A stretch of 64,000 nucleotides of DNA from Ignavibacteriota bacterium (GTDB taxonomy: Bacteria; Bacteroidota; Ignavibacteria; Kapaibacteriales; UBA2268), in NCBI GenBank assembly GCA_019637995.1, contig JAHBUQ010000001.1, positions 1,103,589 to 1,167,588 of the forward strand, written 5' to 3'. Below are positions 26,031 through 35,469 of the stretch, in pieces (the first letter of the stretch is position 1; each line of letters begins with the position of its first letter). Both the position numbers and the translations under genes were made by a program. Below the pieces are notes generated by a model. The model saw only the letters and a list, made by a program, of their open reading frames with translations. It made no database searches and was not told the DNA's origin.

Positions 26031-26120
26031 AAGAATATTCAATTTTTCATTTTAGCAATATTATTTTTTACTCAACTGAAACAAACATTATAAAATTGTG
26101 TCTATGCAATTGAAAAAGAT

Positions 26121-26684
26121 ATGAAAAATTTTAATAAATATAGCGACAACGATTTAATTCAAATAACGGCAAATTCCGGTGAGCCGGAAAAATCTGCGGC
26201 TTTTTCTGAATTGTATAATCGCTATGCAAATAATATTTATCTGTATTGCAGGAAAATTTTCGGTGATGGCACTTTTGCAGAGGATATTTTTCAGGATACT
26301 TTTTTACAACTACTTAAATGTATTGAAAATAAAATATATATTGGAAATGTGCAGGGGTATTTACTTAAAACAGCACGCAATTTATCACTGAATTTCAGGC
26401 GTAACCAAAGAGCTGAAATGGTAGAATTTGATGATTTCAGAGCAAATATTGACGATAACAGCTACGAACTTAAAGAACTTTCCGAAATGATTGATTCTGC
26501 TCTGGAGTTACTGCCTGAAGAGCATAAAGAAGCATTTATACTTCAATCTTATCAGGGACTTAGCTATAGTGAAATTGCAACACTAACCGACGTACCGCTT
26601 TCAACTGTCCGCAACAGAATTGTAAGGGCAAAAGCAAAATTAAGAGAAATTCTGGCTCCAATGATTAAGGAGGAAAAATTATGA
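26121..26684 (+). CDS. ECF-type (sigma-70 family, group 4) RNA polymerase sigma factor, 187 aa. Module 1.
   Basis: Region 2-like FSELYNRYANNIYLYCRKIFGD..AEDIFQDTFLQLL and region 4-like LSYSEIATLTDVPLSTVRNRIVRAKAKLR helix-turn-helix. A candidate TGAAAC-N16-TGTCTA promoter sits at 26077-26104. Confidence 0.85.
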   Translation: MKNFNKYSDNDLIQITANSGEPEKSAAFSELYNRYANNIYLYCRKIFGDGTFAEDIFQDTFLQLLKCIENKIYIGNVQGYLLKTARNLSLNFRRNQRAEMVEFDDFRANIDDNSYELKELSEMIDSALELLPEEHKEAFILQSYQGLSYSEIATLTDVPLSTVRNRIVRAKAKLREILAPMIKEEKL

Positions 26685-27919
26685 AAAATTATGATACATA
26701 CAGCGAGTTGATTTATCTTGTAATTGATGGGGAAGCAAGTGATGCTGAAAGAACTGCTTTCTATTCAGCACTTACCAAAAGCACCGAATTACAAAATGAA
26801 TTTCAAACTGCTATGAAGTTTAACAGAGCGGCTGAGAGTTATCCGAAAAAATCAACTGTTCCGGTGGCAGTTACTGATAAATTATTCAGCAAAGCCGGCT
26901 TGACATATATCCCCAAAGATGCGGCTATAGGTGCTGCAGCCGTTACAAAAGGAGCAATTGTAAAAAGTGGTATCTTTAGTAATGTTATGAGCAACTCAAT
27001 CAGTAAAATTGGCTTTGCTGTTATTGGAATGATCCTTGGTGCCGGAATAATGTATTTACTGAATGATAATTCCGAAATTATCGCTGCCGGAAGTCAGCCC
27101 AATAATATTGACAACAGATTTATCAAATTCGCAGAACCTGAAAAAGCAATTCCAATAATGAGTGCAAATAATGTTGATGAAATTTCATTTACTAAAAGCA
27201 TCAAACGTAACAAAATTGCATCTAATAATTCAGGAAAAATTCTAACAGAGGATGTTGGAATGGAAGATGAAAAATTTGAGAATATTCCTCATCTTAAAGA
27301 TATATCAGAGATATCAAATATTTCAAATAGTAATGAATATTTTCACAATTTGAGTAAATCTAATATTAATTACGAGAGATTTAATAAGATGATTTATGAA
27401 AATAACATCCTGAATAAAAACAACATATTTACATTCTTTGATAATCTGGAAATCTCTTTGGAAAATTCAATTCCGTGGTTTGTTCCTGAAGCATCAGTAT
27501 CACCAAAATCTTATAATAAATTCAACAATTTGGGCTTAAGAGTGTTATTTAAGGCAAATGATTATTTCAGGACCGGAATTTCAATAAATCAGTCCACATT
27601 TTTTGCAGAGTTTATTCAAAGTGAAATGGATGGGAATATTTACAATTATCGAATTCAGCCAAATTTAACAACGGTTTCAAGTGAAATTTTAATTAATTTG
27701 ATAAATTCGGAAGTGTTGGTGCCGTATATTCAGCTTAGTGTGGGAGCTAATCAGGCAGGGATTGTTTTAAGTCCGGCAATGGGTATTGAGTACAATGTTG
27801 TAAATTCTTTATCAATTTATTTCAGTGGTACAATGGATTATTTTAGATTTATACAAAACGACAACTGGTTCGATACTCAAAAATTCAGACTGAATTACGG
27901 TATAAATCTCAAATTTTAA
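26681..27919 (+). CDS. Anti-sigma-like membrane protein, 412 aa. It has a cytoplasmic N-domain, a single TM helix, an N/S/K-rich linker and a C-terminal predicted 8-strand OM beta-barrel-like domain ending in a beta-signal (..YGINLKF). Module 1.
   Basis: The start overlaps the sigma stop (ATGA) and is preceded by AAGGAGGA. The TM segment is IGFAVIGMILGAGIMYLL. The last ~130 aa show 8 alternating-hydrophobic stretches and a terminal Phe with hydrophobics at -2, -4 and -6. Confidence 0.5.
   Translation: MKNYDTYSELIYLVIDGEASDAERTAFYSALTKSTELQNEFQTAMKFNRAAESYPKKSTVPVAVTDKLFSKAGLTYIPKDAAIGAAAVTKGAIVKSGIFSNVMSNSISKIGFAVIGMILGAGIMYLLNDNSEIIAAGSQPNNIDNRFIKFAEPEKAIPIMSANNVDEISFTKSIKRNKIASNNSGKILTEDVGMEDEKFENIPHLKDISEISNISNSNEYFHNLSKSNINYERFNKMIYENNILNKNNIFTFFDNLEISLENSIPWFVPEASVSPKSYNKFNNLGLRVLFKANDYFRTGISINQSTFFAEFIQSEMDGNIYNYRIQPNLTTVSSEILINLINSEVLVPYIQLSVGANQAGIVLSPAMGIEYNVVNSLSIYFSGTMDYFRFIQNDNWFDTQKFRLNYGINLKF
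27138..27265. repeat. 128-bp tract (coding AIPIMSANNVDEISFTKSIKRNKIASNNSGKILTEDVGME) that is ~98% identical at nucleotide level to 31436-31563 in the paralogous anti-sigma gene
   Basis: Side-by-side reading shows three mismatches in 128 nt. The flanking sequence of the two genes is only 20-50% identical at protein level. Confidence 0.7.
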
Positions 27920-27934
27920 TTAGGAGAAATTGCT

Positions 27935-28396
27935 ATGAAATTACTTTTGAAAAGTATATTGCTTTTAATGATAATAATTATTTTCAGTTCTTGCAAAGAT
28001 ATACTTTCTACAGAACCGAGATATGATAAAAAAATCATAACTGAAAATCTATCACCTGCTGATTCACTCAAACTTCTGACCTTACCCGATGTGGACTTAG
28101 GAATTATTAGAGTAAAAGCTATGATTTCAAGGAATATCATTATTGCCAATAATTCTGATTTACACGATATAGAAATATATTCAATTGATAATGATAATAA
28201 AACGGGAATATTTACTTACGGTTTTCCTGAAGGAATGCCATTTGTTATTAAGTCGTCTTCAAGTACTGAACTTTTCCCTGCAATCGAAGTAACATTCATT
28301 GCTGACCCAATTGTACCGGGAATTTTCTATGACACATTATACATAAATCAAAACGAAGAAATGTTTATTCCAATAAGAGTGCAAACAAGATTTTAA
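27935..28396 (+). CDS. Small lipoprotein, 153 aa, with a single Ig-like (DUF1573-like) domain. Module 1.
   Basis: Signal peptide plus lipobox-like IIIFSSC, with AGGAG upstream. The core LPDVDLGIIRVKAM..NNSD resembles the C-terminal domain of the 349-aa lipoprotein in module 2. Confidence 0.6.
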   Translation: MKLLLKSILLLMIIIIFSSCKDILSTEPRYDKKIITENLSPADSLKLLTLPDVDLGIIRVKAMISRNIIIANNSDLHDIEIYSIDNDNKTGIFTYGFPEGMPFVIKSSSSTELFPAIEVTFIADPIVPGIFYDTLYINQNEEMFIPIRVQTRF

Positions 28397-28416
28397 TAAT
28401 AAAAAGGAGTTCTAAA

Positions 28417-30111
28417 ATGAAAAAGTTCACATTGTATTTAGTTGCTTTCTTTGCGATTTCCTCACCGCTTTTAGCGCAAAAGTTTAATCATCCCGAACTA
28501 CAGTCGGATACATTAAGAACATTTGAAAGTAAAAAGAATACTGTCAGCAATATTCAATTCGGTGCAACAAATTATGGGATAAGTAATTGTTATTTCAATT
28601 TCCCTGAATTACGGGGTGTAATTTGGCCCAGAAATAGTGATATTACTTATTCTTTTGGAAGCGGGTTGTGGATTGGCGCTAGTAAATATCATCCTGATTC
28701 AAATAAAACAAGAAACATGGTTCTAATAACATATAACCCGAACTCAGGGAAAAGTTGGGCTGTGCCAGGGAGAATAGAAGACGGAAATGAAGTCAAATAT
28801 GATTTGAAGAAGAAATACAGGACATTTTTAAGTACAGAATACAACACATACACAGGCGAGCCTTTTGATAGTGATTACGAATATAATTGGTCTCACTGGA
28901 TTTCAAACGGAGAGAAAAAGTACAGTCATGGAGTATTTTTAAATGAATACGAACACGAAAATTCAAAGCGAAACCGCGATAATTATCTTAATGGTCCTTT
29001 AATTGTATCCGATGAAGATATTGTAACTACCTTCAAGGATACAGACTTAAACTTTTATGAGGGTGGCTCAGCAAACAGACTGGCACAAGGTTATCCCTTG
29101 AGTTTACAAATGGAATCATCCATTTATTCTTGGAGCGATGATTTAATGAAAGATGTGATAATTCAAAGATATGTAATTGAAAATAAGTCCAATGACACAC
29201 TTAAAGACTGTTGGATTGGGAATTATAATGGTGTTGGGATTGGACTTATTTCAAAGTTTGATAACAAAGAATGGGGGACAAAAGATAGATTGATTTACTA
29301 CGAAGAAGATAAAACATTGAATCTTTTTGTTGCTTGGTCAGAAAATTCTGAGGTCATAAATGGTAAAGGATTTGGTTACTTTGGTGTATCCTTGCTTGAA
29401 ACTCCGGCAGTTGATAGCGATGGCTTTTTGAGAAATGACAAGCTAATATATCAAATGGATGAACAGATTGGATTAAAGTCATTGTATAATTGGCACATCA
29501 AGAATGATCCAAGATACGATGAACAAAGATATGACATATTAACATCAAACCAAATTTACAAGTCAGATGATTATCTTGATGGTGGAAGAGTTATGACATC
29601 TACCGGTCCATTTCACTTTCGTCCGGGAGAAAAGGCATACTTTACTGTATTGATAGCATTTGCACTTCCTGCTAAAGGAGGCGAAGCTGACGGTACAAAA
29701 GAAGATATTGCAGGTATCGGCGGCAAAATCAACAAGGGCGATAATCCAATTAAACAAAGCAACGAATTATCACTTATTGATAAAATCAAATTTGCAAGAG
29801 ATAAATATTATAATGGCTTAGTTACAAAAATATTGGAATCTGAAGTTCGCAGAAATTCAGAATTGAGTGTCTATCCCAACCCCGCTACAGATTTCATTAC
29901 AATTCAATTAAGCAAAAAAGGGCTTCAGCCCTTTGCAGCGACTGGTAAAGTGCAAATATTTGATGCGTTGGGTTTGGAAGTCATATCCACCCCGTCAGCT
30001 GCGCTGACACCCACGGGTGAGGGGAATTTAAGAATTGATGTTTCGCATTTACCAGCAGGAGTTTATTTCATACGTGTTGGTAATAAGGTAGGCAAATTTG
30101 TGAAGAAGTAA
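28417..30111 (+). CDS. Secreted protein of unknown function, 564 aa, with a T9SS C-terminal sorting domain. Module 1 cargo.
   Basis: Signal peptide MKKFTLYLVAFFAISSPLLAQ and AAGGAG upstream. The last ~80 aa, LSVYPNPATDFITIQLS...GVYFIRVGNKVGKFVKK, form a Por secretion tail. Confidence 0.7.
   Translation: MKKFTLYLVAFFAISSPLLAQKFNHPELQSDTLRTFESKKNTVSNIQFGATNYGISNCYFNFPELRGVIWPRNSDITYSFGSGLWIGASKYHPDSNKTRNMVLITYNPNSGKSWAVPGRIEDGNEVKYDLKKKYRTFLSTEYNTYTGEPFDSDYEYNWSHWISNGEKKYSHGVFLNEYEHENSKRNRDNYLNGPLIVSDEDIVTTFKDTDLNFYEGGSANRLAQGYPLSLQMESSIYSWSDDLMKDVIIQRYVIENKSNDTLKDCWIGNYNGVGIGLISKFDNKEWGTKDRLIYYEEDKTLNLFVAWSENSEVINGKGFGYFGVSLLETPAVDSDGFLRNDKLIYQMDEQIGLKSLYNWHIKNDPRYDEQRYDILTSNQIYKSDDYLDGGRVMTSTGPFHFRPGEKAYFTVLIAFALPAKGGEADGTKEDIAGIGGKINKGDNPIKQSNELSLIDKIKFARDKYYNGLVTKILESEVRRNSELSVYPNPATDFITIQLSKKGLQPFAATGKVQIFDALGLEVISTPSAALTPTGEGNLRIDVSHLPAGVYFIRVGNKVGKFVKK
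29872..30111 (+). repeat. T9SS-tail-coding block, ~90% identical at nucleotide level to 35231-35469 at the 3' end of the module-2 cargo gene. It contains an internal perfect hairpin, AAAGGGC-TTCA-GCCCTTT, at 29917-29934.
   Basis: Direct comparison of the two 3' ends. The bodies of the two proteins are unrelated. Confidence 0.7.
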
Positions 30112-30190: not shown

Positions 30191-30206
30191 ATTAAGTAGC
30201 CAAAAC

Positions 30207-30250
30207 AGATGGACTACACCTCGGAGGTGGAGTCCATCTTGCTTTTTATT
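30207..30250 (+). terminator. Long-stem hairpin terminator. A 15-bp stem (AGATGGACTACACCT / AGGTGGAGTCCATCT, one mismatch) is followed by TGCTTTTTATT. The stem is conserved with the hairpin at 34054-34088.
   Basis: Read directly. T-tract follows. Confidence 0.6.
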
Positions 30251-30509
30251 AATCCCAGAAATCCTTTAATCCGAATAATCTCTGATTCAGAAAATGTTGA
30301 AAAACTATAATTTTAAATATTGAAAATAATTTGTGACTTTTTATTCCTAATTTACGTTAATTATTTATGAAAGTTGTACTTTTATAAAAATTATGAATAC
30401 TGAATAACAAAAATATAGCGATAATGATTTAATTAAAATTATCAGAAGTGGTGAAGGTTACTCAGTTGACTATTCCTTCAACACTCTTTATGAAAGGTAT
30501 TCTGCTAAG

Positions 30510-30989
30510 TTGAATTTATTTTGTGTATTCAAATCAAAAAATCCACTTGATGCTGAGGAAATTTTCGAAGATACCTGGCTCAAGTTTCTTGATAGAATCA
30601 GGCAAGGAAAAATACCTGAATCAGTTCTGTCATATTTATTTGCAATTGCAAGAAATCTTGCGATAGACAGGTATCGTGCTGAAATTTCAAAGAAAACAAT
30701 TACAATTGAGTATCGGGATTATTTGAATTTTGAAGACGACTATAGTCAATTATCAACTGAAAATTTGGTTGATGCTGATGAACTTAAGGAGGTTATTATG
30801 GGCGTTCTTTCAAATATGGACGACATTTACAGCGAAGTTTTTATTATGCAGTGGTTTGGCGGGTTAACTCAAAGGGAAATTTCCGAAACACTGAATATTG
30901 GTTTGTCAGCAGTAAAGATGCGAAGTCATCGTGCCATGAAAGAAGTTATTAAATATGTTAAGCCAATTTATAAGAATTATGATGAGTAG
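30510..30989 (+). CDS. ECF sigma factor paralog, module 2. The 5' end is disrupted by an in-frame TAA at 30405-30407, downstream of an ATG at 30393. The longest intact ORF starts at TTG 30510 and would lack part of region 2.1. Possible pseudogene.
   Basis: The frame 30393-30989 reads MNTE*QKYSDNDLIKIIRSGEGYSVDYSFNTLYERYSAKL-MNLFCVF.... This aligns with the module-1 sigma MKNFNKYSDNDLIQI...FSELYNRYANNIYLY. Region 4 (LTQREISETLNIGLSAVKMRSHRAMKEV) is intact. Confidence 0.6.
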   Translation: MNLFCVFKSKNPLDAEEIFEDTWLKFLDRIRQGKIPESVLSYLFAIARNLAIDRYRAEISKKTITIEYRDYLNFEDDYSQLSTENLVDADELKEVIMGVLSNMDDIYSEVFIMQWFGGLTQREISETLNIGLSAVKMRSHRAMKEVIKYVKPIYKNYDE

Positions 30990-31005
30990 TTCGGAGGATA
31001 TGAAA

Positions 31006-32196
31006 ATGGAAAATATTGATAGATTTACCAAATATTATTCCGGGGAAATGAATCAAATTGAAGAGGAATTATTTTTTTCTGAATTAGCTTTAGATAATTC
31101 AGTCAGAGATGAATTTAAAACTTTTTATATGATAAATAGTTCCTTATCATCAATTGTCAGTTCCTATAAACCAAGTGAAGAAAGTAAAGCCAAGCTTTTC
31201 AGCAAAGCCGGATTGGTTTATTCACCGGCTGCCATAACGGTAGCGGCTCTGACTGCAACAAAAGGCACAATAATCAGTCAGATTGCGACTTATACAATGG
31301 GCAAACTCGGTTTAATTTTGTTTGGTTTAATTATCGGCGCCGGACTGATGTATCTGCTAAATTCTCAACCTGAAAATATTGCTTTAAATAATCAACCGGC
31401 TAATAATGAGGAAAGAATCATTCAAATCTTAGATTCTGAAAAAGCAATTCCAATAATGAGTGCAAATAATGTTGATGAAATTTCATTTACTAAAAGTATC
31501 AAACGTAACAAAATTGCATCTAATAATTCAGGAAAAATTCTAACTGAGGATGTTGGAATGGAGGAGAAAGAAGAACTTCACACCCATAATATACAAATTA
31601 AAAAGTGTCAAATACCTGATGTTCATAATTTTGAAGGAAATATAATTCCAGAATATAAATTAAATTCTGAAATTAAAAATACAGAGTATTATCAAAAAAT
31701 TTCAACAGATTTTAAAGAATTAGGTTTATCAGTTGAAACAAGATACTCTACATACTGGAATATGGTAAATGAAAATGTTCAGCCAAGTGAATTTTCGATT
31801 TTTAATAATATTGATATATTTGTTTATAAAGAAGTCTTGCAAAATTTGCTTCTGGGTGCAGGTGTGCGTCAGGAAACGTTTTATGCTAAATATAACTCTT
31901 TCGAGAATGGACGGGATTTTATATATGAGCAACAACCAAATCTTACAAATTTTGAGTTAGCAATTCGGTATTTCCCATATAATATTGAATTTTTCAAACC
32001 GCTTATTCAACTGAACTTAGGCGGTGGTAACTATGGATTCACATATCGTGGAGCAATTGGAAGTGAAATTAATCTGATAGACAAATTTTCAATATTATTA
32101 ACTATTGATTATGCCACATTCAATTTTTTTCATAAAGACATAAAGAACAATTCGGGTAAAGTTGGAATTAATTACGGAATAAATTATAAATTTTAA
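31006..32196 (+). CDS. Anti-sigma-like membrane protein paralog, module 2. Same architecture as module 1: N-domain, TM helix LGLILFGLIIGAGLMYLL, linker, and an 8-strand beta-barrel-like C-terminus ending ..NYGINYKF.
   Basis: I place the start at ATG 31006, giving MENIDRF.... This is 7 nt after GGAGGA and matches the module-1 MKNYDTY start. The ORF track begins at 30955, inside the sigma gene. Confidence 0.5.
   Translation: MENIDRFTKYYSGEMNQIEEELFFSELALDNSVRDEFKTFYMINSSLSSIVSSYKPSEESKAKLFSKAGLVYSPAAITVAALTATKGTIISQIATYTMGKLGLILFGLIIGAGLMYLLNSQPENIALNNQPANNEERIIQILDSEKAIPIMSANNVDEISFTKSIKRNKIASNNSGKILTEDVGMEEKEELHTHNIQIKKCQIPDVHNFEGNIIPEYKLNSEIKNTEYYQKISTDFKELGLSVETRYSTYWNMVNENVQPSEFSIFNNIDIFVYKEVLQNLLLGAGVRQETFYAKYNSFENGRDFIYEQQPNLTNFELAIRYFPYNIEFFKPLIQLNLGGGNYGFTYRGAIGSEINLIDKFSILLTIDYATFNFFHKDIKNNSGKVGINYGINYKF
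31436..31563. repeat. Partner copy of the 128-bp near-identical tract (see 27138-27265)
   Basis: Same basis as 27138-27265. Confidence 0.7.
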
Positions 32197-32202
32197 ATAA
32201 AT

Positions 32203-32946
32203 TTGGAGAGAACAATGAATACTAAAATCATTTTATCATTAGCATTGCTTTTGCTATTTTTGACATCCTGTGAAGACATTGTCAATTCAGAAAAGAACAT
32301 TAAGAAAACTGGATACTTGTATAATAAGGTTCTTAATAATCAGGAAAAAAACGTATTAATGCCATTGAAAGTTGGTAATATGTGGCTATATGAAGTCAAA
32401 CAATTTGACTCATCCGGTACAATGATTAACGAATATATTGACTCAATCGAAGTCTTAGAGAAAATCAACTTCAGAGGCGAAACATGGTTTAGAGTCAGAA
32501 TGATAGATATGGGTTCTACTTGGAATTCAATTCTGACTAATACAGATAAGGGGCTATATCGTGCAGACGAGAACACCACACTTGATTGTAGATTTATAGT
32601 AGCTCAATATCCTGAGAATCGAAGTCAAATTATTGCCCTTCATGAAGAAAATGTGATGATTATGTATTTTGACGGTCAGAAAGATGTTATTGATACAGTT
32701 ACAACTCAATATTTAATTGAATTAAATGCAAATTATACTGCTTCTTTTAAATCTGCAAATTATCCTGCACGGGAGTATTCTACTTACTGGAGGGCATTAG
32801 AGTTGGTTGATAGTAAAACTTTGCATAAAGTTGATGTTTTTGTTCCAAACATAGGTCTTTTTGAGCATAAACGCTACCGCTTTGCCGGAGGCAGAAGGTA
32901 TGTTGAAACCCACTATAAATTAGTAGCAACTAATTTAATAAAATAA
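32203..32946 (+). CDS. Lipoprotein, 247 aa, paralog of the N-terminal domain of the next gene. Module 2.
   Basis: Lipobox FLTSCED. The leader TAAATAAATTTGGAGA is identical to that of the next gene. Shared blocks include CEDIVNSEKNIKKT/CDDIVNSDSNIKKT and MPLKVGNMWLYEV/MPLKVGYKWLYSV. Confidence 0.6.
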   Translation: MERTMNTKIILSLALLLLFLTSCEDIVNSEKNIKKTGYLYNKVLNNQEKNVLMPLKVGNMWLYEVKQFDSSGTMINEYIDSIEVLEKINFRGETWFRVRMIDMGSTWNSILTNTDKGLYRADENTTLDCRFIVAQYPENRSQIIALHEENVMIMYFDGQKDVIDTVTTQYLIELNANYTASFKSANYPAREYSTYWRALELVDSKTLHKVDVFVPNIGLFEHKRYRFAGGRRYVETHYKLVATNLIK

Positions 32947-32965
32947 ATAAATTTGGAGAAACATT

Positions 32966-34015
32966 ATGAAATCGAAAGTTATATTAATGCTAATCACAGT
33001 GCTTGTTATTATAACAGCTTGCGATGATATTGTCAATTCCGACAGTAACATCAAGAAAACGTCGCTTGATTATAGTAAGGTACTTGATAATCAGGAAACA
33101 GGTGTCATAATGCCACTGAAGGTGGGTTATAAGTGGCTGTATTCAGTTGATAAAGTAAATGAAGAAAATGTCGCAATTAGTAATCGTATTGATTCTATTG
33201 TCGTTCTGCGTGAAGTAATGTTGGAAAATGAAAAATGGTTTGAAGTATATTTCCCAATGTTTTCAAGAGATTACAATGTCCTGATGACCAATACCGAAAA
33301 AGGTTTGATGATTCATTGCGAGCAATGCTTGGAAAAGAAATTTCTTTGGGCAGAATATCCACAAAATGGCAGTCTTTTCTATAGCGGAAGGAAATTAATT
33401 CAGTTGAAAGATTCCCAAGGAAATGTAATTGGTCAAGATTATGTACCATTAGGCAAAGAGTCGCAGAGTTCCGGTGTTAGTTTACAAAATGGAAAAAGCT
33501 TTTCAACGGTAAATTATGTCTGTTATGCAATCAATCAAAACAAAATGCAAAAAGAAGTTTTCCTTGGAGATGAGCATTTCTCTCCGGATTTTGGTTTAGT
33601 TGCCGGATTTACTAAAGCGTTAGATGGAATGCTTGGAGAGCAGTATGAGTATTTAGAGTTTTCTAATATTAGCGAAGTAAATCAATGTATTTATGAAGAA
33701 ACCATCAACCTTGGCGACATACAAATTGGAAAGGTTCATTCATTCACAAAAGAAATAACAAATACCACTGACAAAACTTATAGTTTGAAAGGAATAGCAA
33801 TAATACCGGCTACTGAAATTATCAGCTTCGGAAAAATTACACCTACAATGCACGACTGGCTTAACTTCCCAATCAGACAAAATCAAAAGCTTTCTATTGA
33901 AATTAAAGTTACACCAGACAAATTAGGAGATTTCTCTACATCAGTAATGATATTTCATTCAGAAATGCATAATTGTTTTTATAGAATTTATATTAACGGT
34001 ACTTGTGTAGAGTAG
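32966..34015 (+). CDS. Lipoprotein, 349 aa: N-domain paralogous to the 32203 gene plus a C-terminal Ig-like domain related to the 27935 lipoprotein. Module 2.
   Basis: Lipobox IITACDD. The C-terminal INLGDIQIGKVHSFTKEITNTTD... is DUF1573-like. Confidence 0.6.
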   Translation: MKSKVILMLITVLVIITACDDIVNSDSNIKKTSLDYSKVLDNQETGVIMPLKVGYKWLYSVDKVNEENVAISNRIDSIVVLREVMLENEKWFEVYFPMFSRDYNVLMTNTEKGLMIHCEQCLEKKFLWAEYPQNGSLFYSGRKLIQLKDSQGNVIGQDYVPLGKESQSSGVSLQNGKSFSTVNYVCYAINQNKMQKEVFLGDEHFSPDFGLVAGFTKALDGMLGEQYEYLEFSNISEVNQCIYEETINLGDIQIGKVHSFTKEITNTTDKTYSLKGIAIIPATEIISFGKITPTMHDWLNFPIRQNQKLSIEIKVTPDKLGDFSTSVMIFHSEMHNCFYRIYINGTCVE

Positions 34016-34053
34016 GAAATTAGATATAATCTGTATCGCAGATTTAGTCAAGC

Positions 34054-34088
34054 CAGATGGACTCCACTTACAAAGTGGAGTCCATCTG
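34054..34088. repeat. Perfect 15-bp-stem hairpin (CAGATGGACTCCACT-TACAA-AGTGGAGTCCATCTG). The stem sequence is shared with 30207-30239. No clear T-tract follows, so this may be a REP-like element or a terminator.
   Basis: Read directly. It lies between the second lipoprotein gene and the cargo gene of module 2. Confidence 0.45.
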
Positions 34089-34131
34089 AAAATCAAATAT
34101 TTTATTTAGTAATTATATAATTGGAGAAAAA

Positions 34132-35469
34132 ATGAAAACCAAAATTTTATTGCTTTGTTTATTTGTTATGATTTATAGCGAAAGTTCTTCCCAGCTTATA
34201 AAATGGGATACGTTAACAACCGACTTTGATTATTTCAACAGACAACATTTCCATACTATAAATGAAACAAGAGAATACATATATTCTTTCAATTTAGGTT
34301 CCATCGTTAATAATCTATTAGTTATTTCAGAGTATGATATTTACAAAAAAGATTTCTCAGAACAAATCTCATTCAAATTAGATCAGATGTATAATCCAAA
34401 TGAATACCGTCCTAATGATTGCATTATGACTGAAAACAACATTATTTATGTAGTTGCTGATTCAGGATATATTTTTCAAAAAAATATTTTTAACAAAGAA
34501 TGGACTTCAAGAAAAATTATTGAAGAAAGTGCTTTGATTTACAATATTGCTTTCAAGGATTCTTTATTTGGTATTATTTCAAATTATCCGGATTATGAAA
34601 ACCTGATACCTGAGCTGCATTATACTGAAGATGGAGGAAATAATTGGTCAAAATTTGAAAATCAAATTGAGAACGAAAAGCCATTTTTAATTACAAGTTT
34701 TAGATTTTTTCAGGATACAATGATTGTAATTACTTATGAACCGGAAACAAAAAATCGAAAGATATATTTCAGTTTTAACTCGGGATATAATTGGGATTAT
34801 ATCAATGAATTCCCAAAATTTAGTTCATTAGAAAGACATAATAGTATTTATTTCAAAAATGGAAAGTTATGGGTTGCTTCGATAAGGTCAGAGGAATTTG
34901 TTTTTTCTGATAATTTTGGTCTAACATGGACGAAAGTAAATGAAGTTAATTCTAATGAAGGGATTCGGGGTATCAGGAATATAACTTTTAAAGATAATTT
35001 AAATGAAGGTTTTGCACTAAATCCATACGGTGTTTATTATACTACAGATGGTTTAAACTGGGAATTTGACAGAAATCATGAAGATAAGCAACTAGAAAAA
35101 TTGAACTTAACGCAATTCAATTACAAAGATGAAATTTATCTTATACAAGATAGCGCTGCATTAAAATATGATGGTCTGATTACTTCAATTAAACAAAATG
35201 ATGTTTCAAAAATTGGAGGCATGAGCGTTCATCCCAACCCCGCTACAGATTTCATCACAATTCAATTAAGCAACAAAGAGCTTCAGCCCTTTGCAGCAGA
35301 AGAAAAAGTGCAGATATTTGATGCGTTGGGTTTGGAAGTCATATCCACCCCGTCAGCTGCGCTGACACCCACGGGTGAGGGGAATTTAAGAATTGATGTT
35401 TCGCATTTACCAGCAGGAGTGTATTTCATTCGCATTGGTGAGCAAGTGAGTATGTTTGTAAAGCACTAG
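34132..35469 (+). CDS. Secreted BNR/beta-propeller-like protein, 445 aa, with a T9SS C-terminal sorting domain. Module 2 cargo.
   Basis: Signal peptide MKTKILLLCLFVMIYSESSSQ. BNR-like motifs YTEDGGNNWS, SDNFGLTWTK and YTTDGLNWE. The tail MSVHPNPATDFITIQLS...GVYFIRIGEQVSMFVKH is ~90% identical to that of the 28417 gene. Confidence 0.7.
   Translation: MKTKILLLCLFVMIYSESSSQLIKWDTLTTDFDYFNRQHFHTINETREYIYSFNLGSIVNNLLVISEYDIYKKDFSEQISFKLDQMYNPNEYRPNDCIMTENNIIYVVADSGYIFQKNIFNKEWTSRKIIEESALIYNIAFKDSLFGIISNYPDYENLIPELHYTEDGGNNWSKFENQIENEKPFLITSFRFFQDTMIVITYEPETKNRKIYFSFNSGYNWDYINEFPKFSSLERHNSIYFKNGKLWVASIRSEEFVFSDNFGLTWTKVNEVNSNEGIRGIRNITFKDNLNEGFALNPYGVYYTTDGLNWEFDRNHEDKQLEKLNLTQFNYKDEIYLIQDSAALKYDGLITSIKQNDVSKIGGMSVHPNPATDFITIQLSNKELQPFAAEEKVQIFDALGLEVISTPSAALTPTGEGNLRIDVSHLPAGVYFIRIGEQVSMFVKH
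35231..35469 (+). repeat. Partner copy of the T9SS-tail-coding block (see 29872-30111)
   Basis: Same basis as 29872-30111. Confidence 0.7.

Follow-up and report, generated by a model that had tools for sequence, protein, structure and literature searches.

RpoE/RseA of E. coli (1OR7) and SigW/RsiW of B. subtilis (5WUQ) are the closest described systems to the locus considered here, which lies in a 64,000-nucleotide stretch of DNA from an Ignavibacteriota bacterium (the window). The window contains two adjacent ECF modules, and the sigma gene of the second (sigma-2) shares several features with rpoE and sigW: the same two domains, Sigma70_r2 and Sigma70_r4_2, within about 195 aa, the gene of a membrane protein immediately 3', and an ECF-type motif of its own upstream (-35 xxGTGAC, 17-nt spacer, -10 CGTT). 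Its sequence identity to the solved ECF sigma factors is low (E = 5e-9 at best), while its N-terminal helices align with those of E. coli sigma-E in 1OR7 and of SigW in 5WUQ. Unlike RpoE and SigW, sigma-2 is interrupted by a stop at codon 5, and the product of the gene that follows, a putative anti-sigma factor, has no Pfam or NCBIfam match.

Much closer relatives are found among other Kapabacteria and Ignavibacteriota MAGs. Their orthologous sigma-2-type genes (proteins P0001, P0019, P0020 and P0003-P0013; loci L001 and L004-L010) are 42–84 % identical at the protein level and have in common with the window gene the start, the promoter motif and the type of N-terminal domain of the downstream anti-sigma protein. 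In contrast to the window gene, they are all uninterrupted. Our preferred reading, to which we assign a probability of roughly three in four, is that the window gene is a very young pseudogene or a severe hypomorph, whose function would be lost or nearly lost. The features on which the argument draws are collected in the table below.

Features of the module-2 sigma gene and its surroundings (positions in the window)
Feature	Position	Strand	Evidence or remark
sigma-1, paralogous module-1 ECF sigma, intact	26121..26684	+	31 % identity to sigma-2
Intrinsic-terminator-like hairpin and T-run	30207..30250	+	terminator scan; between p564 (module 1) and the sigma-2 promoter
ECF-type promoter motif of the sigma-2 gene, predicted	30332..30360	+	-35 TGTGAC 30332-30337, 17-nt spacer, -10 CGTTAA 30355-30360
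Ancestral ATG start of the sigma-2 gene	30393..30395	+	aligned M in all 13 homologues; ATG in L001 and L010
Nonsense codon TAA, codon 5	30405..30407	+	mutated base 30407, T to A relative to TAT (Tyr)
Rest of the sigma-2 frame, sigma-2 and sigma-4 domains	30408..30989	+	193 intact codons and TAG
Near-cognate in-frame codons ATT 30432, ATT 30438, ATC 30441	30432..30443	+	sequence reading; hypothetical restart sites
Publicly annotated truncated CDS, 159 aa, TTG start	30510..30989	+	MBX3042948.1 / MCW5883675.1
as2, putative cognate anti-sigma gene	31000..32196	+	GGAGG Shine-Dalgarno, intact frame
p247, p349 and p445, downstream module-2 genes	32203..35469	+	ORF list; all intact

Direct reading of the window bears out the preliminary description of this gene: the ATG is followed by AAT ACT GAA and then by TAA, beyond which the same frame stays open. 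It reads CAA AAA TAT AGC GAT AAT GAT TTA ATT ..., that is QKYSDNDLIKIIRSGEG...FNTLYERYSAKL, and continues as QKYSDNDLIKIIRSGEGYSVDYSFNTLYERYSAKLNLFC... up to the TAG at 30987-30989. Residues 6-39 of the sigma-2 frame include YSDNDLIK and SGEGYSVDYSFNTLYER. As described earlier, the frame beyond the stop also aligns with the N-terminus of the module-1 sigma factor; the alignment of the read-through product with that protein begins at KYSDNDLI and extends over 188 aa with 31 % identity (E = 3e-24). The first in-frame ATG, GTG or TTG past the stop is indeed TTG 30510, but it is codon 40 counted from ATG 30393, and a start there removes 39 residues rather than the approximately 35 first given. At 35 % G+C, a stretch of 193 open codons has a chance probability of ~6e-7. 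This value, the homology that the 34 codons from the TAA to the TTG show to the N-terminus of every relative, and an N-terminal dN/dS of 0.08–0.12 together indicate that the open frame is more than a product of chance.

The ancestral state of codon 5 can be read from the orthologues. A protein search yielded 13 clear homologues of 193–198 aa, in addition to P0002, the public 159-aa annotation of the same locus, which is 99 % identical over 82 % of the query. In the alignment, all 13 homologues begin with a methionine that is aligned to ATG 30393, and the conserved motif KYSDxEL(I/L) comes after it. None of the 13 starts at the equivalent of 30510, although it had been considered that relatives might naturally do so. 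The closest cluster (P0001, P0019 and P0020, 83–84 % identical) reads MNTEYQKYSD, and the DNA of L001 and L010 begins with ATG AAT ACT GAA TAT. Codon 5 is TAT (Tyr) in L001, L010 and P0020, and encodes F, Y, M or S in more distant homologues. Over ATGAATACTGAATA[A/T]CAAAAATATAGCGA, the window and the L001 DNA are identical except at 30407, which is A in the window and T in L001. Since the closest relatives have TAT at codon 5, the stop is to be read as a single T-to-A transversion at 30407 that turned Tyr5 (TAT) into TAA. A premature stop thus stands where the orthologues have a sense codon, as expected of a pseudogene. A protein-based scan of metagenome contigs gave no relative above 49 %, and an exact-pattern scan for ATGAATACTGAANNNCAAAAATATAGCGA in metagenome and genome contig collections gave no match.

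The protein encoded beyond the stop carries the domains of its family. In the 193-aa post-TAA translation, Sigma70_r2 (PF04542) is matched at residues 27-91 (E = 2.6e-9; 37.2 bits, cut-off 24), over profile positions 1-67 of 71. Sigma70_r4_2 (PF08281) is matched at residues 130-179 with 33.4 bits (cut-off 25.7), and PF04545 reaches 32.1 bits (cut-off 24.1). The score with TIGR02937 is 71.2 bits (cut-off 42.9); the complete sigma-2 has 198 aa and no regions 1.1 or 3. By these profiles, the gene is a genuine ECF (group 4) sigma gene. The AF2 model of the 193-aa translation (mean pLDDT 80.5) predicts a sigma-2 domain of helices 5-13, 18-43, 46-65 and 73-94, a disordered linker at 96-121 and then the sigma-4 domain.

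On this model, the consequences of a start at TTG 30510 would be severe. The codon corresponds to model residue 35, and helix 5-13 is lost together with 17 of the 26 residues of helix 18-43. The conserved F..LY.RYS.KLN motif falls within the lost part, and the Pfam r2 match of the 159-aa product begins at profile position 18 of 71. The model therefore agrees with the earlier proposal that such a start deletes region 2.1, as helix 1 and most of helix 2 (region 2.1) are gone. Region 2.1 of sigma-70 was reportedly found by Lesley and Burgess in 1989 to be needed for core binding. The 159-aa product is thus predicted to be unlikely to fold or to bind core RNA polymerase. Its translation would not be favoured either: the TTG is preceded by nothing more Shine-Dalgarno-like than a weak AAAGG, 12 nt upstream, while about half of the genes in the window have a clear Shine-Dalgarno sequence.

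The coding sequence bears the marks of long-standing purifying selection. Nei-Gojobori dN/dS is 0.089 between the window sigma-2 and L010 and 0.072 between the window and L001, with dS about 1.0–1.3, in comparison to 0.062 between the intact relatives L010 and L001. The dN/dS value quoted above for the 39 N-terminal codons alone shows that this stretch has been protein-coding and under purifying selection, and the constraint appears to have held through almost the whole divergence (dS about 1). No second stop and no frameshift is seen in the sigma-2 frame, which has kept the family residue at each of the 30 invariant positions of alignment A3. The absence of any other lesion and the low dN/dS indicate that the mutation is recent. 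Relaxed selection is not detectable by dN/dS, which is expected if the event is very recent but also fits a gene that is still functional. A decomposition of the pairwise distances places omega at ~0.085 on the window branch and at 0.05–0.11 on the sister branches. If an ancestral omega of 0.05 is assumed, the lowest sister-branch value, the neutral period covers at most a few percent of the window branch; with an ancestral omega of 0.085 or more, it is not measurable.

Relative rates were also compared. With P0001, 12 amino-acid changes are specific to the window and 2 to the sister; with L010, the figures are 7 and 3. These figures carry little weight, as the control genes p153, p564 and the C-terminus of as1 are paralogous, not orthologous, to those of L010. 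A codon-parsimony count, which gave 22 non-synonymous and 27 synonymous changes for the window branch and 2 and 40, respectively, for the sister branches, was rejected as biased because the method requires identical codons in both sisters and thereby drops saturated synonymous sites (dS about 1).

Taken as a very young pseudogene, the locus has a simple history. The ancestral module-2 gene would have been a normal ECF (group 4) sigma gene in which codon 5 changed from TAT to TAA. Ribosomes starting at ATG 30393 would now make a 4-residue peptide, and a restart at TTG 30510, ~100 nt downstream and with its poor Shine-Dalgarno sequence, would give a protein without helix 1 and most of helix 2. 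No canonical in-frame start that keeps the conserved domains exists before TTG 30510. With sigma-2 dead, its positive feedback could presumably not fire, and the module-2 operon (as2, p247, p349 and perhaps p445) would stay uninduced at a basal level. The preliminary description had put forward a recent pseudogene as one of its options, and this option is supported: the three nearest relatives have a Tyr codon, the homologues start at the equivalent of 30393, and there is no decay. Other young nonsense pseudogenes in bacteria likewise combine a single substitution with intact orthologues and no secondary decay, and are likewise often mis-annotated; here, the gene caller took the next start and produced a truncated "protein". 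In comparison to them, the window lesion is unusually near the start (codon 5), which leaves a restart formally possible. The lesion itself is an ordinary nonsense mutation that needs no new mechanism.

A sequencing error had been considered as an alternative and is now largely excluded. The 159-aa protein is encoded on three contigs, namely the 1.5-Mb NCBI contig, JAHCIB010000002.1 (GCA_026129425.1, L002) and a Logan contig of SRR35197330 (L003), and two NCBI protein accessions, MBX3042948.1 and MCW5883675.1, exist for the locus. Both L002 (6,480 bp) and L003 (1,497 bp) carry the TAA and match the window at 100 %. The run SRR35197330 consists of Illumina NovaSeq reads from an alkaline anammox reactor in Taiwan and was published in November 2025 (PMC12697185). 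These data are independent of the earlier MAG depositions, and the run was deposited in 2025, years after the MAG protein records. All copies are 100 % identical over 1.5–6.5 kb and are perhaps not fully independent, but the three assemblies come from different pipelines and the lesion is a substitution, not a homopolymer indel. Since an artefact is very unlikely to yield the same substitution from different assemblers and different data, there is little chance that the TAA was created by sequencing, assembly or consensus building and that the organism truly has TAT. In at least two independent data sets, the consensus for this Kapabacteria population is TAA and, from the comparison of assemblies, the mutation itself is almost certainly real. 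Were the TAA decoded instead, by programmed read-through, a suppressor tRNA or a reassigned code, the protein could be made in full, and some leakiness is conceivable since the TAA-C context occurs in just 1 of the 20 genuine TAA stops of the window. TAA is, however, the commonest true stop (20 of the 38 long ORFs in the window), the stop is not conserved in the orthologues, which carry TAT or other sense codons, and the window contains no tRNA gene; these observations do not support read-through or reassignment. Nor does any other long gene of the window need read-through of a TAA, the long ORFs being uninterrupted under table 11. We regard decoding as the most improbable of the explanations discussed.

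Two further alternatives accept the stop as a stop but let sigma-2 work without its first residues. Initiation at a near-cognate codon (ATT 30432, ATT 30438 or ATC 30441), either by ribosomes that have terminated at the TAA or independently of such termination, would yield, at a reduced level, a sigma factor that lacks only 13–16 N-terminal residues and keeps helix 2 and region 2.1. The three codons, the only in-frame near-cognate ones before TTG 30510, lie 25–36 nt past the stop, and a stop only 4 codons from the start is a classic restart situation, as known from early nonsense mutations in lacI and rIIB. The remaining gene and the whole operon are intact, and the first 25 residues are the least conserved of the family, KYSDxEL excepted. 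On the other hand, there is neither an ATG, GTG or TTG nor a Shine-Dalgarno sequence near these codons, most of helix 1 would still be lost, including the conserved D10 and L13, and no relative in the 13-homologue alignment uses such a start. In E. coli, initiation at ATT or ATC reaches at most about 1 % of the ATG level. A sigma-2 that still works in this way seems unlikely to us, though its chance is not negligible. A naturally shortened but functional sigma factor made from TTG 30510 is far less probable. It is the form annotated by NCBI, it still scores 67.5 bits with TIGR02937 (cut-off 42.9), and the AAAGG mentioned above could serve its translation. However, this form has no counterpart among the sigma-2-type homologues, none of the 13 starting there. 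The 78 sigma-1-type homologues are likewise nearly all 172–219 aa long, the sole shorter ones being two partial matches of 122 and 141 aa on contigs of ~1 kb. In addition, the 39 codons that it would lack have been kept under the strong constraint described above, and its sigma-2 domain of four helices would be without its first helix and most of its second (17 of 26 residues).

It was suggested earlier that module 2 might come under the control of sigma-1 in the absence of its own sigma factor, a proposal that the promoters do not support. Each of the eight orthologous loci (L001, L004-L010) has TGT(G/A/T)AC-N17-CGT(T/C) upstream of the start and at one and the same distance from it, and the TGTGAC-N17-CGTT-type motif has a single intergenic copy in the window, with no further sigma-2-type copy upstream of p247, p349 or p445. 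It looks like the sigma-2 gene's own autoregulatory ECF-type promoter, and it is intact. The motif of sigma-1, TGAAAC-N17-GTCT at 26077-26103, is of another kind and is kept in the orthologues L011 and L012. Given two different motifs, each conserved in its orthologues, and the terminator-like hairpin between the modules, cross-regulation by sigma-1, at the promoter or by read-through, is not supported. The hairpin after p564 (30206-30244) also has an 85 % identical inverted copy on the opposite strand at 34050-34088, in the gap between p349 and p445. The repeat could be either a terminator present twice or an REP-like element, and because of it p445 may be transcribed as a unit of its own.

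Downstream of the sigma gene, the longest ORF of as2 begins at ATG 30955 and overlaps the sigma gene (30955-31006). Judging by the GGAGG at 30993-30997 and by the public call (position 3497 of L002, window 31006), translation begins instead at ATG 31000 or 31006. The N-terminal ~80 aa of as2 are identical to the L010 anti-sigma protein at 54 of 80 positions, as against 22 of 78 for as1. Position and co-variation with the sigma type suggest that as2 may act as an anti-sigma factor, and an N-terminus that goes with the sigma type across genomes would fit a sigma-binding domain. Among the remaining genes of the module, p445 has a Pfam Por_Secre_tail match, that is a T9SS sorting tail. The putative anti-sigma proteins of both modules, as1 (26681-27919) and as2 (31000-32196; 398 aa), are about 400 aa long and match no Pfam or NCBIfam model. 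In each, an N-terminal domain and a single hydrophobic segment are joined to a conserved C-terminal domain, the end of which reads NYGI(N/S)xK(F/L). These proteins form an uncharacterised family that is common in Kapabacteria and Ignavibacteriota.

The ECF modules of this group (26121-30111 and 30393-35469 in the window; L004-L012, L021 and L023 elsewhere) are mosaics of sigma/anti-sigma "heads" and cargo "tails". In seven loci (L004-L010), sigma-2-type genes head an anti-sigma gene, p153 and p564; in the window, sigma-2 heads p247, p349 and p445, and p153 and p564 follow sigma-1. Sigma-1-type genes are found with p247/p349-like cargo in L012 and L021, with p564-like cargo in L011, and with p153 and p564 in L023. 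The first ~80 aa of the anti-sigma proteins go with the sigma type, and the last ~150 aa with another lineage (as1 and L010 share 92 of 147 residues). These patterns point to repeated recombination of heads and tails, with the exchange taking place inside the anti-sigma gene. The window was also considered as the one case in which modules 1 and 2 had traded their anti-sigma C-termini and cargo reciprocally, but its uniqueness had to be rejected: L023, whose sigma-1 is 84 % identical, has the same sigma-1/as1/p153/p564 order and L021 combines a sigma-1 with a p247-like gene, so that shuffling is recurrent.

Traces of exchange are also seen between the two modules of the window. A mid-gene tract of 135 bp (as1 27138-27272, as2 31436-31569) is 97 % identical, with 36 of 37 aa in common. 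The wider tract (27038-27272 and 31336-31569) is 82 % identical over 235 bp, in genes that are otherwise about 30 % identical. The tract probably reflects a recent gene conversion or recombination at the domain junction. The T9SS C-terminal sorting domains of p564 (29864-30081) and p445 (35222-35439) have 92 % nucleotide identity, the other parts of the two proteins being unrelated. This likeness suggests a conversion or exchange at the level of the domain.

For annotation, the practical consequence of the pseudogene reading concerns the two public records, in which the 159-aa product is labelled "RNA polymerase sigma factor" and carries no pseudogene flag. This annotation is almost certainly a gene-calling artefact, the stump of a gene broken at codon 5, and both records need to be flagged as a pseudogene with an internal stop. 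As an observation on the population, contigs of different assemblies, that of the 2025 Taiwanese anammox reactor among them, match the window at 100 % over 6.5 kb and 1.5 kb, an agreement suggesting that the Kapabacteria population of such reactors is near-clonal. It is tempting but doubtful to go further and to see the TAA allele not as neutral decay but as fixed and perhaps adaptive, turning down one ECF module in a near-clonal lineage that occurs in separate anammox reactors. The T9SS-exported surface proteins would then be silenced, or would trickle through by a restart at ATT 30432-30441, in a family whose heads and tails recombine inside the anti-sigma gene. The case opens no long-standing question; it is a small example of the loss of a regulatory gene in an uncultured lineage. 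What it suggests is the very recent loss, or near-loss, of one ECF module from an adjacent pair that controls T9SS-sorted proteins in a Kapabacteria strain found in anammox reactors.
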